Origin: Minisyncoccota bacterium
Lineage (GTDB): Bacteria > Patescibacteriota > Minisyncoccia > JBAYJV01
Assembly: GCA_041664925.1 (NCBI GenBank)
Contig: JBAYJV010000003.1
Span: 21,179 to 85,178, forward strand
DNA: 64,000 bases
Direction: 5' to 3'
Shown here: in pieces, positions 2,965-56,734 of the stretch
Numbering within the stretch: position 1 is the first letter of the stretch
Layout: the number at the start of each line of letters is the position of its first letter
The notes under the pieces: generated by a model
What the model was told of the DNA's origin: nothing
The model's input: only the letters and a program-made list of their open reading frames with translations
Databases searched by the model: none
Position numbers and translations under genes: made by a program

Positions 2965-4470
2965 ATGAATAAGCTATATCATATACCTTTTTTGTTTTGT
3001 ATTTGCCTGATTATTGGCGCGGGAGTTGGATCGTGGTTTTCTGTTATTAACCAGACTATGGTACTGACAATTTTTATTGGATCGGCGCTTTTTGCGCTTT
3101 TATTTTTTTTAAGAAAGGAACCGATTTATATTTTAGCGGGATTTAGTTTAATAGGCATTTTGCTGGGCGGATTTCTTTCAAATCAAGCCTCAATTCGTCT
3201 TGGTCAAATTCGTCAAATTGAAAATACTTCTAAACAGGTAAACGTTAAAGCTATGGTTGTCTCAGAAAAAGATGAAAGAGAAAAGTACAATAACTATATT
3301 ATTGAATCAAATAAAGAAAGAATTTTGCTTTTAACTGACAAATACAATGACTTTTCTTATGGCGACACATTGGAGATAAAAGGAGCACAAGAGGTGCCAA
3401 AAAACTTTGCTGATTTTGATTATCAAGGATATTTAGCAAAAGATGGAATTTATGCCATGATGCGCTTTCCAGAAGTAAGTCTGATTGGTCGCGACACCTC
3501 ACCGTTGGTAAACTTTTTTCGGGGATTATTCAACATCAAGGCTCAAATCAGATATAACCTTGTAAAAAATTTTCCTCAAAACGAATCCGATTTTATTCGA
3601 GCTTTAATTTTGGGTGACAAAGGAACTGTCAGTCAAGATTTGCGCACTGCTTTTTCTCGCACGGGCACTTCTCATGTCATTTCTATTTCAGGGCTTCATC
3701 TTTCAATCATGACGGTTTTTATGTTTAATATTTTTCTGGTATTGGGTTTTTGGCGCAAACATGCGACAATTGCAACGATTTTTATGCTTTTTTTGTTTTT
3801 AATCTTTATTGGACCAATTGCGCCGCTTGTTAGATCGGTTATTATGTCTATATTGTTTTTGATCTCAATGTCTTCGGGTAAAGTTTTCCGCAGTACGCGT
3901 ATAATCACTTATGCTGCCATCATTATGTTGATATTAAATCCGCTTCTTTTAAGATACGATGTTGGCTTCGAACTTTCTTATTTGGCGCTTCTTGGAATCA
4001 TGCTTTTTAAACCAATGTTTGATTATTTCCTTAAAAAACTTTCTATTCCCAAAATCATTAATGACATGATTACCACAACTTTGTCAGCGCAAATTCTCAC
4101 TCTTCCAATAATTATTTCCAATTTCAAAATTATTTCTCTTGTTGCTCCAATAGTTAATCCTTTGGTTTTATTTCTTTTTCCGGTTCTCCTTAATCTTAGT
4201 TTTTTATGGGCATTCTTATCGCTTCTTTTTAATGTTTCATTTTTAGCAATTCTTCTTTATCCGATTACCAATCTAACTTTATGGATAGTTAAATGGTTTG
4301 GCGATCTTTCTTTTTCAGCCAAGCAATTATCAAACACATCATCATTATTTTATTTTAGTATAATCTATTTATTTTTTTCTCTGGCAATTTTATTCTGGTG
4401 GAAAAATTTTTATGCTCGCAATTTAACGCCACTAGCTGAATGGCGAAAATGGAAAGACCATGAAGAATAA
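2965..4470 (+). CDS. comEC: ComEC/Rec2 competence protein, membrane channel (competence) domain
   Basis: Polytopic membrane protein with the LILGDKGTVSQDLRTAFSRTGTSHVISISGLHLSI competence-domain signature. Confidence 0.8.
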   Translation: MNKLYHIPFLFCICLIIGAGVGSWFSVINQTMVLTIFIGSALFALLFFLRKEPIYILAGFSLIGILLGGFLSNQASIRLGQIRQIENTSKQVNVKAMVVSEKDEREKYNNYIIESNKERILLLTDKYNDFSYGDTLEIKGAQEVPKNFADFDYQGYLAKDGIYAMMRFPEVSLIGRDTSPLVNFFRGLFNIKAQIRYNLVKNFPQNESDFIRALILGDKGTVSQDLRTAFSRTGTSHVISISGLHLSIMTVFMFNIFLVLGFWRKHATIATIFMLFLFLIFIGPIAPLVRSVIMSILFLISMSSGKVFRSTRIITYAAIIMLILNPLLLRYDVGFELSYLALLGIMLFKPMFDYFLKKLSIPKIINDMITTTLSAQILTLPIIISNFKIISLVAPIVNPLVLFLFPVLLNLSFLWAFLSLLFNVSFLAILLYPITNLTLWIVKWFGDLSFSAKQLSNTSSLFYFSIIYLFFSLAILFWWKNFYARNLTPLAEWRKWKDHEE

Positions 4471-19697: not shown

Positions 19698-19905
19698 TTT
19701 GTCGCCTCCTTTGGAACTAGCCCTATTCTATATTCTTTATAAAATAATGTCAATGAAAATGGGTAGAAGCTAGAAGTTGGAAGATAGAGGTTAGAATAAT
19801 ACCATATGGCGAATACGAGATTTTTCGCTTGGTTCGACAAGCTCATCATAAATCACTCAGAATGACAGACAAAAATCGGAGGCTAAGACTCCGATTTAAC
19901 GATAT

Positions 19906-19967
19906 CGGGCTGGGGAGACTTGAACTCCCGACCTCACGGTCGCCTCAGGCGACCGCTAGTCAACTAC
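19906..19967 (-). pseudogene. Partial tRNA-like sequence. Its first 32 nt are a direct repeat of the 3' region of tRNA-Pro at 20233, and the remainder is diverged
   Basis: cgggctggggagacttgaactcccgacctcac is shared with 20233-20264. The 5' acceptor strand is missing. Confidence 0.5.
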
Positions 19968-20207
19968 ATGTTTAACATTTACATCTAGCCATTCTCTTCC
20001 CTTGCCAGATTTCAAGAATTTTTCTCTTCTAACTGCATCAATCCTTGTTTCGAATTTCTCTGTATATTCTAAAGAAAATGGTAGTTGGAATCTTATTGAT
20101 TTAGTTAATCCAAGATTATGCTCATCAATCCTTCTTTCTAAGTTGTTAGTTTGTCCGATATAGCGATAACCGTTTTTCTTACTTCTTAACACATATACAT
20201 AGTACAT
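19956..20207 (-). CDS. GIY-YIG nuclease-domain minigene
   Basis: YVYVLRSKKNGYRYIGQTNNLERRIDEHN is a classic GIY-YIG fold signature. About 84 aa. Start taken at MYYVYV, because the track's N-terminal extension overlaps the tRNA. Confidence 0.75.
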   Translation of the reverse strand: MYYVYVLRSKKNGYRYIGQTNNLERRIDEHNLGLTKSIRFQLPFSLEYTEKFETRIDAVRREKFLKSGKGREWLDVNVKHVVD

Positions 20208-20232: not shown

Positions 20233-20305
20233 TGTATCGGGCTGGGGAGACTTGAACTCCCGACCTCACGCACCCCATGCGCGCGCGCTAGCCAACTGCG
20301 CCACA
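20233..20305 (-). tRNA. tRNA-Pro (anticodon GGG inferred)
   Basis: The reverse complement folds as a cloverleaf: acceptor CGGGCTG/CAGCCCG, T-arm GGGAG-TTCAAGT-CTCCC, anticodon loop AUGGGGU. No encoded CCA. Confidence 0.7.
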
Positions 20306-20423
20306 GCCCGTCATTCTTATAATATATAATTATTGAACGAAAATCAATAATTTTTATTGATCCTTGACAATTTTATGGAAAAGAGTAGGATAAAGACAGC
20401 TTTAACGTTCCAAAGGAGGAACA

Positions 20424-43121: not shown

Positions 43122-43475
43122 AATTTTATAATAAATCATAAAGAACTAGCAGTAATTGCTAGTTTTTTATTGAAAAAAATTCATACTTGCCCTTCCGAAG
43201 CCTTGGCGTAGGAGGGCTTGTCCGTCCGAAGTCCCGGCTCGCCGGGACGAAGGAGGGTCATTCTGACCCCGGCAAGCCGGGGGAAGAATCTCTGAATTAT
43301 AGCTTTGAATTTTAAGTTATGGTTTTCCTGCCTGCCGGTAGGCATGGGAGTTTTGCGCTTTGAATTTTGATTTTTCACTCAAACTCTTGCATTTTATGCT
43401 TAATTGTGATATAATAGGTAATGAAAGAAGAGTTAGGGTTTCGTCAAACACACAAGCGAAAGAAGGAGGAAGAGA

Positions 43476-47506: not shown

Positions 47507-47724
47507 AGCGGAACGCTTTTTTTGATTTTTGATTTTTTAATGATAAGATAAGGAAAGTTCTTTGAAAATATATAATTAATATAGTCCTTCGACTGGAACT
47601 GCAAATAGCGATACCCTCCTTCTCCCGCCTGCCTGCCGGTAGGCAGGGCAAGCCGGGATACGGAAGGGTGTAAGTTTTTCTATTTTCTCTCTTATGGTTC
47701 GAAAAGAAAAACTAACAACGGAGG

Positions 47725-55287: not shown

Positions 55288-55441
55288 AGTTTCATTCAGG
55301 GGAGTCAGCGTGCTTCCCTGTTTTTTTGATTAAAAAAACTTATGTTATTTTATATTATTTCTATACCACTAATGAAATATGTGGGAGGCTCAGCCTCCCA
55401 CATATTTCAAATTCAAATATTAAATATGATATAATTTTAAT

Positions 55442-56125
55442 ATGAGAAAAATAGAATTCATAACATCCGATATATACTTATATCACATCTACAATCGTGG
55501 AGTAGACAAGCGAAACATTTTTTTAGAAAATGATGATTATGTTCGTTTTATTCATGATCTTTTTGAGTTTAACGATACAAGACCGGCTAGAGAATTTTCT
55601 CGTGCAAAAAATATAATTATTGATCAAGAGAAAAGAAAATTGAAAGTTGAAATTCTTGCTTTCTGTCTTATGCCAAATCATTTTCATTTATTATTAAAGC
55701 AAAAAGAAGATAGGGGAATTAAAGAATTTATGCATAAAATAGGAACTGGATATACGATGTATTTTAATAGGAAAAACAAGAGATCGGGAGTATTATTCCA
55801 GGGTAGATTTAAGGCAAAACTTATAGACAATGAACCATATTTCAAGTATATGCCCCACTATATTCATGCCAATGCGTTGGATTTATTCCAGTCTGATTGG
55901 CGTGAACAAAGCATAAAAAACATAAAACAAGCATTAGAATTTTTAAAAAAATATCGTTGGTCTAGTTGTTCAGATTATTTGGGGAAAAAGAATTTTCAAT
56001 CGGTTATATCAAAGAATTTTATTGATAGCATGTGGGGGAATTCAGAACATTATCAACAAGACCTTGAAGAATATATCAAAAATAGAGATATGTGGGAGGC
56101 TGAGCCTCCCACATATCTCGGATGA
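55442..56125 (+). CDS. IS200/RAYT-like HuH tyrosine-transposase-like protein, copy 3
   Basis: YHIYNRG, PNHFHLLL and SGVLFQGRFKA motifs. Flanked by the 29-bp GGGAGGCTCAGCCTCCC palindrome at about 55376 and about 56086, and the second copy forms the gene's 3' end. Confidence 0.75.
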   Translation: MRKIEFITSDIYLYHIYNRGVDKRNIFLENDDYVRFIHDLFEFNDTRPAREFSRAKNIIIDQEKRKLKVEILAFCLMPNHFHLLLKQKEDRGIKEFMHKIGTGYTMYFNRKNKRSGVLFQGRFKAKLIDNEPYFKYMPHYIHANALDLFQSDWREQSIKNIKQALEFLKKYRWSSCSDYLGKKNFQSVISKNFIDSMWGNSEHYQQDLEEYIKNRDMWEAEPPTYLG

Positions 56126-56206
56126 ATTCAAAACAAGTATTGAATATTTATCATTCAGAACGATTGACTTTTGAAGTTAAATAGAATAAAATATTACTAT
56201 AATTAT

Positions 56207-56253
56207 GCCCAGGTGGCGGAATTGGTAGACCTGCCGGCAGGCAGGCGCGCAAG
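56207..56253 (+). pseudogene. 5' fragment of a tRNA-Leu-like gene (acceptor GCCCAGG, D-arm), separated from its 3' part by the GIY-YIG insert
   Basis: Direct repeat of 56613-56657. Its 5' acceptor strand is complementary to the 3' end CTTGGGC at about 56701-56707. Confidence 0.4.
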
Positions 56254-56271
56254 TCTCATTAACAGAAAATT

Positions 56272-56514
56272 ATGGCAGATAAATATTGTATATATGTTAT
56301 TAAGAGTATTTCTCATAAGTACATATATGTAGGGTTAACTAATAATTACGAAAGAAGAATTAATCAACATAACAAAGGCAAGGAAAGAACGACAAGACAT
56401 TATCGTCCTTTTAAATCGGTTTTAACAGAAGAGTTTAAGACTCGAATAGAAGCGAGAAAAAGAGAAAAGTATCTTAAATCAGGTATTGGCAAGGAATATT
56501 TAAAATCAATATAA
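56272..56514 (+). CDS. GIY-YIG nuclease-domain minigene, 80 aa
   Basis: CIYVIKSISHKYIYVGLTNNYERRINQHN GIY-YIG signature. Paralog of 19956..20207. Confidence 0.75.
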   Translation: MADKYCIYVIKSISHKYIYVGLTNNYERRINQHNKGKERTTRHYRPFKSVLTEEFKTRIEARKREKYLKSGIGKEYLKSI

Positions 56515-56521
56515 TGTTTAT

Positions 56522-56605
56522 GCCGGGGTGGCGGAATTGGCAGACGCGCACGACTCAAAATCGTGTGAGATTACTCTCATGTGGGTTCGATTCCCACCTC
56601 CGGCA
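56522..56605 (+). tRNA. tRNA-Leu (anticodon CAA), with a long variable arm
   Basis: GCCGGGG acceptor, D-arm GCGGAATTGGCAGAC, anticodon loop CUCAAAA, variable arm GAGATTACTCTCAT, T-arm GTGGG-TTCGATT-CCCAC. The track ORFs at 56514 and 56528 here are artefacts. Confidence 0.75.
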
Positions 56606-56611
56606 TATTAT

Positions 56612-56707
56612 AGCGGAATTGGTAGACCTGCCTGCCGGCAGGCAGGCGCGCAGGTCTCAAAAACCTGTGAGATTACTCTCATGTGGGTTCGATTCCCACC
56701 TTGGGCA
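56612..56707 (+). pseudogene. tRNA-Leu(CAA)-like sequence that lacks the 5' acceptor strand and carries the CTGCCTGCCGGCAGGCAGG palindrome in the D-region. Disrupted second tRNA copy
   Basis: The anticodon stem-loop CAGGT-CUCAAAA-ACCTG covaries with the intact copy. The 3' end CTTGGGC pairs with the fragment at 56207. Confidence 0.45.
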
Positions 56708-56734
56708 CGAGTTTTATTTTTTTAAAGGAAAATT

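Follow-up and report, generated by a model that had tools for sequence, protein, structure and literature searches.

In cyanobacteria and plastids, group I introns that carry homing endonuclease genes sit in the anticodon loop of tRNA-Leu genes. A different association with tRNA genes is that of SegB, a phage protein of about 220 aa with a DNA-binding domain, for which we know of no cognate palindrome. SegB is a GIY-YIG homing endonuclease enriched beside tRNA genes, where it drives amplification of tandem tRNA and segB units; its homologues, surveyed in virus genomes, favour no tRNA isotype and have spread horizontally (PMC13096335). The minimal form of the GIY-YIG domain is found in prokaryotic Slx1-like proteins, and a phylogenomic survey of 2006 does not report that these are linked to tRNA genes, accompanied by partially duplicated tRNAs or paired with a palindrome of their own (PMC1564403). 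We analysed a 64,000-nt stretch of contig JBAYJV010000003.1 (the window; coordinates of the main locus are on its + strand), in which a tRNA-Leu gene is split by an insert holding a minimal GIY-YIG nuclease gene and a second, complete tRNA-Leu. This locus is one member of a widespread family, in which a nuclease gene has tRNA-derived flanks on both sides and is accompanied by a GC-rich palindrome. We consider it probable, and by no means certain, that the family consists of selfish, homing-type elements that copy themselves between tRNA genes of the same isotype by recombinational repair, using the tRNA as homology and always restoring one intact tRNA.

The split tRNA-Leu(CAA), hereafter A, occupies both ends of the locus. 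Its positions 1 to 23 (56207-56229) include the 5′ acceptor strand GCCCAGG (56207-56213) and the D arm, and match the reconstructed A at 100%. Between positions 23 and 24 lies a palindrome shortened to 16 nt by the loss of one CCTG unit, CCTGCCGGCAGGCAGG (56230-56245), followed by positions 24 to 36 (56246-56258), where the sequence of A stops after the second anticodon base. A 13-nt leader, TTAACAGAAAATT (56259-56271), precedes the nuclease open reading frame (ORF; 56272-56514), and after a gap of 7 nt (56515-56521) comes the intact tRNA-Leu(CAA), hereafter B (56522-56605; 56521-56606 by ARAGORN, 56.5 bits with Rfam RF00005). The spacer TATTATA (56606-56612) separates B from a second copy of A, which lacks the first 9 nt. 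This copy consists of positions 10 to 23 (56613-56626), the full and perfect 20-nt palindrome CCTGCCTGCCGGCAGGCAGG at the same site 23/24 (56627-56646; hairpin of -13.9 kcal/mol), and positions 24 to 84 (56647-56707), with the anticodon arm CAGGT/ACCTG, the CAA anticodon, the variable and T arms, the 3′ acceptor strand CTTGGGC (56700-56706) and the discriminator A. A consensus scan gave a promoter-like site upstream of the 5′ piece (TTGACT-17-TAAAAT, 56164-56192, +, 10/12) and another in the 3′ end of the ORF, 6 nt before B (TTGGCA-18-TATAAT, 56486-56515, +, 11/12); such sites are no commoner here than in shuffled sequence, and the second is not kept in the related locus L086.

A sequence-only reading made before this analysis had placed a GIY-YIG gene and an intact tRNA-Leu(CAA) between direct repeats. 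Pfam, ARAGORN and Rfam agree on the gene and the tRNA, and the repeat is present with ends shifted by a few bases, at 56216-56258 (43 nt) and 56613-56659 (47 nt), each copy being made of 14 nt, the palindrome and 13 nt. The two copies differ by one 4-nt indel, the CCTG unit within the palindrome, and by an A/G substitution at 56252; the A disrupts one anticodon-stem pair in the upstream piece of A, which suggests decay of that piece. The insert measures 397 bp and contains the ORF and the tRNA only. When it was removed in silico together with the 20-nt palindrome, A folded as a perfect tRNA-Leu(CAA) cloverleaf, and the outer acceptor strands pair across the insert, as the same reading had it. 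ARAGORN found no tRNA in the outer A with the palindrome present, or without its first 9 nt; when the pieces were scanned with ARAGORN and Rfam, B alone was recognised. The outer tRNA-Leu is thus a former tRNA, now split and undetectable as a tRNA.

Two acceptor pairs and two anticodon-stem pairs are changed on both sides between A and B, plus one D-loop base, while CAA is kept; the two-sided changes had been noticed earlier for the anticodon stem, and they are found in the acceptor stem as well. The 34 nt of the variable and T arms are identical in the two. Both A and B were therefore shaped as working tRNAs. That the outer pieces of A pair with each other and sit in unique flanks favours A as the resident gene; in L033, however, fragments resembling A are likewise found with the element.

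The ORF encodes a protein of 80 aa, which is a GIY-YIG catalytic domain and nothing else: it matches Pfam PF01541 (E = 5.8e-17, 62.2 bits for a cut-off of 22.6), and no second Pfam domain with a matched stretch in the protein rises above its own cut-off. Profile matches to the structures 1YWL (5.2e-8), 1ZG2 (1.9e-7) and SLX1 7CQ2 (4e-5) place it in the GIY-YIG superfamily, within the stand-alone Slx1-like/UPF0213 minimal group. TIGR01453 was matched only by the sister protein of the Pro type described below, at 24.4 bits for a cut-off of 56. Residues Y8, Y17, R29, H33 and E65 are invariant in an alignment of 21 sequences, homologues are mostly 77-88 aa long, and the ORF is free of stops in 77 of 80 related loci. 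From open frames and invariant catalytic residues, the enzyme is active-looking. Homing endonucleases of the modular I-TevI/Seg type are defined by a DNA-binding domain; since the 80-aa protein has no such domain at its C-terminus, we did not file it with them.

The locus is no unique event but belongs to a large cross-phylum family. A search with the Leu-type protein gave 725 matches at E ≤ 1e-5. Among the 120 matches listed, identity to the query ranges from 62 to 81%, and the named hosts include Patescibacteria, Bacteroidota and Thermodesulfovibrionales. Clustered at 50%, the family comprises 438 clusters with the threshold set to E ≤ 1e-10; when this is relaxed to E ≤ 1e-3, there are 4,894. 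We fetched 80 Leu-type loci from species-representative genomes, in which at least 557 stretches were confirmed over very distant phyla. Proteins of these loci are 57-73% identical to that of the window and come from at least five phyla (Patescibacteria, Bacteroidota, Nitrospirota, Ignavibacteria, Gammaproteobacteria). In 77 of the 80, a tRNA-Leu lies on the same strand within 400 nt of the ORF: downstream in 54 (median gap 14 nt) and upstream in 23 (median gap 57 nt). No further tRNA-Leu gene was found in the remaining 293 kb of the 80 loci. The host anticodons among the 77 are CAA (43), GAG (14), CAG (9), TAA (6) and TAG (5).

The palindrome, allowing at most 3 edits, stands beside the ORF in 72 of the 80 loci, against 9 matches elsewhere in 305 kb of flanks. 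These counts make it a hallmark of the element, and not an unrelated dispersed repeat lodged by chance in the D region. Gene calls in the larger protein sets confirm the association independently: several over-long calls start with AELADLPAGRQA or GWRNWQTCLPAGR, which is a translated tRNA D arm followed by the palindrome, and the translated palindrome (LPAGRQ, PACRQA or CLPAGR) is present in 22 of 27 over-long Leu-type gene calls and in 21 of 99 over-long cluster representatives.

In the usual form of the element no whole tRNA is carried; the ORF has an intact tRNA on one side and, on the other, a duplicate of part of that tRNA. Two orders are found. In type a, tRNA positions 1 to n are followed by the palindrome, a short further piece of tRNA, the ORF and the intact tRNA. 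In type b, the intact tRNA comes first, then a spacer, the ORF, a short tRNA piece, the palindrome and tRNA positions n+1 to the end, after which the original downstream flank resumes. Wherever it was mapped, the palindrome is a clean insertion: the tRNA sequence breaks off at position n and resumes at n+1, and no nucleotide is repeated or missing. The commonest value of n is 22-24, where the D loop gives way to the 3′ strand of the D stem; in other lineages it is 14-16, 31, 39, 44 or 61-68. The outer tRNA part extends to the natural end of the tRNA, and the inner part measures 5-42 nt. Tandem or nested elements occur in L011, L027, L049, L084, L060, L074 and L079, so an intact tRNA stays open to renewed invasion. 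A transposon or miniature inverted-repeat transposable element with target-site duplication was considered for the palindrome and rejected, its flanks being consecutive tRNA positions in the loci analysed.

Some smaller observations concern the same loci. Degenerate tRNA fragments often hold further palindromes. A different palindrome family (CCTGTCTACCGACAGGTAGA, CCTGACTACCGTCAGGTAGT, TCTACCTACGGTAGGTAAAC) follows GTGGCG, at position ~12/13, in the disabled 5′ tRNA-Leu fragments of L022, L033 and L053, and palindromes are nested within the main palindrome in L012, L013 and L025. ORF-less, GC-rich inserts of ~85-160 nt lie just past a tRNA and are followed by a duplicate of its last 15-22 nt (L011 ~2826-2950; L027 ~695-940, twice in tandem; L023 ~3170-3330; L099 ~1529-1700); they look like another small element of Patescibacteria that targets tRNA 3′ ends.

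It had been suggested that the mobile unit brings a replacement tRNA for the gene that it disrupts. This held for a minority form, which recurs independently, and not for the usual form. In the Saccharibacteria locus L053, the resident tRNA-Leu is split at 23/24 and both junctions consist of 8 nt, the palindrome and 13 nt; the insert holds a complete tRNA-Leu(TAG), whose acceptor stem is a different one, and the nuclease gene. Pairing is between the two outermost pieces and does not involve the intact tRNA, and, like that of the window, the inner breakpoint comes just past anticodon base two. At a tRNA-Pro locus, L098, a 5′ fragment with palindrome is followed by the ORF, an intact tRNA-Pro and two 5′-truncated, palindrome-bearing copies. 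There, the outermost CGGGGTG pairs with the outermost CATCCCG and not with the intact tRNA, and the repeat is 11 nt, the palindrome and 9 nt. A third locus, L023, corresponds to the downstream half of the same design. These cases support the view that a unit bringing its own whole replacement tRNA is a recurrent outcome. The full form is probably what arises first on entry of the element into a tRNA with non-matching stems, and recombination of the imported tRNA with the downstream remnant, over a direct repeat of ~60 nt, would then yield the common type a.

Several comparisons bear on movement. The closest homologue among the matches listed (81%) belongs to a type-a element at a tRNA-Leu(TAA) on another Paceibacteria contig, between tRNA-Cys and tRNA-Leu(CAG) and in a gene neighbourhood unlike that of the window. 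All five Leu anticodons serve as hosts, and a clustering of the nucleases mixes types a and b as well as the five anticodons; mean identity between the two types is 0.62, compared with 0.63 among type-a and 0.66 among type-b sequences. In about one sixth of type-a loci (L008, L012, L021, L022, L033, L053, L064), the acceptor strand of the fragment is unlike that of the adjacent intact tRNA, so tRNA sequence is evidently carried along by the element. An uninterrupted tRNA-Leu(CAA) locus was not found in relatives: close relatives gave no empty site, and a metagenome scan with the 219-aa protein encoded downstream gave one, non-syntenic relative. A protein search, with the gene context looked up in three cases, gave a single informative locus, L093, which alone hints at a syntenic site free of the element. 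It has a homologue of the gene for the 219-aa protein, at 69% identity, and 37 nt before this gene an uninterrupted tRNA-Leu(TAA) (211-296), with no GIY-YIG ORF.

A sister element in the window, on the minus strand, is associated with another isotype. An intact tRNA-Pro(GGG) (20237-20310; ARAGORN, Rfam) has directly downstream of it a GIY-YIG gene of 83 aa (19956-20207), whose product is 48% identical to the Leu-type protein (phmmer E = 2.3e-21). Right after its stop codon comes the palindrome CGGTCGCC-TGA-GGCGACCG (whole: CGGTCGCCTGAGGCGACCG; 19937-19955), followed by an exact 34-nt duplicate of positions 41-74 of the tRNA-Pro (19905-19938; blastn, 100% over 34 nt). All five Pro-type loci (the window, L096, L098, L099 and L100) combine a tRNA-Pro(GGG) with GGTCGCC-TNA-GGCGACC in a partial copy of it. 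An Arg version is known from one locus, in Flavobacteriaceae: this relative has the type-a order, its tRNA is tRNA-Arg(TCG), and the D loop contains CCTGCCAGCCGCAGGCAGG. Among the Leu loci that bear the palindrome beside the ORF, the 20-mer is unchanged in about 50 of 72, where the proteins are ~60-70% identical. Such conservation would point to sequence-specific recognition, and the nuclease is the sole conserved protein of the unit. Since palindromes differ from one nuclease subfamily to the next, each subfamily having its own, the Slx1-like nuclease probably has its cognate cis-site in the palindrome.

The palindrome also occurs away from tRNA sequence. Its core has 12 matches in the window for 0.30 expected, a count reached in none of 100 shuffles. 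The sequence-only reading had listed relatives of the palindrome elsewhere in the window, and solo copies were indeed located at five sites, between ORFs of at least 90 aa: 180-199 (CCTGCCTGCCGGTAGGCAGG), 43327-43346, 47628-47647, 59462-59481 and 63565-63584. They come in two variants, one with a CCGGTAGG centre and one with TGTCGGCAGAC, and both variants are seen in tRNA fragments of other genomes (L062, L074; L038). The copies at 47628 and 59462 cap longer imperfect hairpins, and that at 63565-63584 is flanked by short AT-rich repeats, AAATTCGAA (aaattcgaaattcgaagcacgaaattcgaaaca), at ~63525-63564 and 63585-63640. About 80 bp upstream of the tRNA-Leu locus lies an IS200/RAYT-like Y1 transposase gene (55442-56125; Pfam PF01797, E = 2.5e-10; NCBIfam REP_Tyr_transpos, 45.7 bits, under the cut-off of 80).

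The steps that we propose are as follows. A break made by the nuclease would be repaired by copying from a tRNA gene that bears the element, the conserved tRNA sequence providing the homology. Through the duplicated tRNA part, or the whole tRNA that is carried along, the host would keep its tRNA throughout; never being without it, the host would find insertion nearly neutral. The element may borrow both the transcription of the tRNA and its processing by RNase P. The palindrome would be the cis-site of the nuclease, and it would also split a direct repeat that could otherwise delete the element by recombination. In the window, resident A would have been split by an insert that brought the nuclease gene and tRNA B, with 14 nt, the palindrome and 13 nt of A duplicated at the junctions.

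A number of points weigh against such homing. Its mechanism is inferred from anatomy alone, since no cleavage, target site or movement was observed. Recognition of a long target would not be expected of a bare catalytic domain of 80 residues that lacks a DNA-binding domain. The intact target tRNA is regenerated, which leaves classical homing immunity unexplained, as are the clean insertion of the palindrome and the right-hand junction of the full form. Simple homing predicts neither solo palindromes in non-tRNA intergenic DNA nor palindromes at several tRNA positions, and an inner tRNA piece of 5-42 nt gives no fixed cut offset. We considered a fixed staggered cut in view of the near-symmetric flanks (14/13 in the window, 8/13 in L053, 11/9 in L098), but rejected it because the inner piece varies over that range among the 69 tRNA copies with a palindrome. 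Searches of phage and plasmid collections gave no member of the family, and IMG/VR gave a single contig among 2.9 million viral contigs. Nor was any pair of filled and empty alleles found.

Part of this evidence would be met by cutting and rejoining centred on the palindrome. The nuclease would cut its cognate palindrome, and host functions would rejoin the cut palindrome of the unit with one in a chromosomal tRNA. The unit would be a small excised or circular molecule, made of the GIY-YIG gene, the tRNA and tRNA(10-23)-palindrome-tRNA(24-36); once integrated, it would be flanked by two palindromes. Solo palindromes would then be footprints or landing pads, the window a primary product, and the common forms deletion derivatives. 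The palindrome-centred repeats that bracket a nuclease and a complete foreign tRNA in the window, L053 and L098 agree with this, as do the palindrome in both repeat copies of the window, the solo palindromes in intergenic DNA, and a palindrome much better conserved than the ORF. Moreover, some GIY-YIG restriction enzymes, Eco29kI and Cfr42I, are described as cutting short GC palindromes (PMC1952068, PMC2241918). Yet no circular junction or excised form was seen, most loci have a single palindrome, and a hydrolytic nuclease does not rejoin DNA. The target would need a palindrome beforehand, so that the first entry into a naive tRNA is unaccounted for, and unequal exchange or gene conversion between copies could produce the same anatomy. 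We therefore regard this explanation as doubtful. We are equally hesitant about a broader proposal, in which the 80-residue nuclease, together with the 20-bp palindrome as its cognate site, would make up an integrative element of a new kind, one that would move a spare-tRNA unit of ~400 bp in and out of tRNA genes, with subfamilies co-evolved with palindromes and isotypes (Leu, Pro, Arg).

It is less likely still that the module is domesticated and benefits the host, the nuclease amplifying or renewing tRNA genes (for instance against anticodon or tRNA nucleases, in the manner of SegB) or serving some tRNA-linked housekeeping, with fragments and palindromes as by-products. SegB is a precedent for tRNA amplification, the ORFs are intact in nearly all loci and tightly co-oriented with the tRNA, probably in one transcript, and the window locus does hold extra tRNA-Leu(CAA) material. 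However, each locus has one functional tRNA copy and the duplicates are disabled. The element also occurs patchily among isoacceptors and gene neighbourhoods, the loci inspected showed no conserved partner genes beside it, and a parasite better fits the cross-phylum similarity and the nested arrays.

That the outer tRNA is still functional, the insert, the palindrome or both being removed from RNA as from an intron-containing, permuted or split tRNA, is very improbable. Its acceptor strands do remain complementary, all stems are kept in the downstream copy, the palindrome apart, and a relaxed Rfam search gave, besides the intact tRNA, one sub-threshold tRNA-clan match, at 56629-56707 (29.8 bits for a gathering score of 47). 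Against this stand the stem-breaking substitution in the upstream copy and the overlap of the pieces by 27 nt (positions 10-36), where complementary halves would be required; the palindrome is in both pieces, the sequence that separates them includes an intact tRNA of identical anticodon, and in most related loci only a short fragment is left. A split or permuted gene was rejected on these grounds. A group I intron was rejected too, as the relaxed search found no Intron_gpI or other ribozyme family at E ≤ 10 in 56100-56800, nor did a search of the whole window at Rfam gathering scores.

With as little probability, the palindromes could be repetitive extragenic palindromic (REP)-like repeats of the adjacent IS200/RAYT-like transposase, near the GIY-YIG gene by coincidence. 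The transposase gene is indeed close by, but it is bracketed by a different palindrome of its own, 35 nt long and perfect (GA(A/G)ATATGTGGGAGGCT(C/G)AGCCTCCCACATAT(T/C)TC, at 55374-55408 and 56085-56119), and a tblastn search of 83 related GIY-YIG loci, nearly all palindrome-bearing, gave no homologue of the transposase, which largely refutes the idea. Finally, a collapsed or chimeric repeat is next to inconceivable as the source of the locus, even though short repeats of this kind break assemblies and a Logan contig (L005) starts within the palindrome of the downstream copy, because two assemblies made independently and with different pipelines (ENA, L001; JGI, L002) agree at every base of the 591-bp locus, and the same architecture is found in dozens of unrelated genomes.

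If the elements are homing-type as proposed, they would be among the smallest protein-coding selfish elements of bacteria, with an ORF of ~240 bp and a palindrome of 20 bp, and at least part of the large stand-alone Slx1-like/UPF0213 family would gain a concrete biological role and a candidate substrate. The family accounts for recurrent annotation errors, namely tRNA fragments reported by tRNA genes and over-long "GIY-YIG" calls of the kind that start with AELADLPAGRQA. It may offer a route for the exchange of whole or chimeric tRNA genes between lineages, which bears on reduced genomes such as those of Patescibacteria, and practical uses are conceivable for so small a nuclease if its site is a defined one of 20 bp. 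No description of the arrangement of tRNA, GIY-YIG gene and palindrome was found in the literature searched, a search that included the palindrome string and was not exhaustive; the family is apparently undescribed.

Among known systems, the UPF0213 proteins EF2693 (PDB 1YWL) and BH0048 (PDB 1ZG2) share the minimal architecture of the window protein and are its best-matching solved structures. SLX1 is named a structure-specific endonuclease in PDB entries, and structure-specific cutting would fit recognition of a hairpin or cruciform. The palindrome resembles REP/RAYT repeats and the GC clusters of yeast mitochondria in being a short, GC-rich, perfect palindrome in AT-rich DNA, dispersed and prone to nesting; unlike REP/RAYT repeats, it is tied to a GIY-YIG nuclease, not to a Y1 transposase, and is strongly concentrated in tRNA-derived sequence beside the nuclease gene. 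Group I introns have in common with the window element the type of host gene, the anticodon breakpoint and a nuclease ORF inside, but here there is no ribozyme, and the tRNA is saved by DNA duplication and not by RNA splicing. Islands and prophages that an integrase targets to tRNA genes likewise have a direct repeat of part of the tRNA at both ends and keep a functional tRNA. The window element differs from them by its size of ~400 bp and by a leftover copy that carries a palindrome, and in the family the duplicated part may be the 5′, the 3′ or the middle of the tRNA; an integrase-mediated island was rejected for the window, the 397-bp insert containing no tyrosine or serine recombinase gene, though the direct repeat of a tRNA segment is there. 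The closest functional analogue is SegB. Like those of the present family, its gene lies outside any intron, sits among tRNA genes, with which it is statistically associated, and forms tandem duplications of tRNA and nuclease; horizontal spread would be a further shared trait. Unlike SegB, the elements of the family encode a bare catalytic domain (80 aa in the window), reside in bacterial chromosomes, are specific for isotypes (Leu, Pro, Arg) and bear a conserved palindrome in a disabled tRNA copy.

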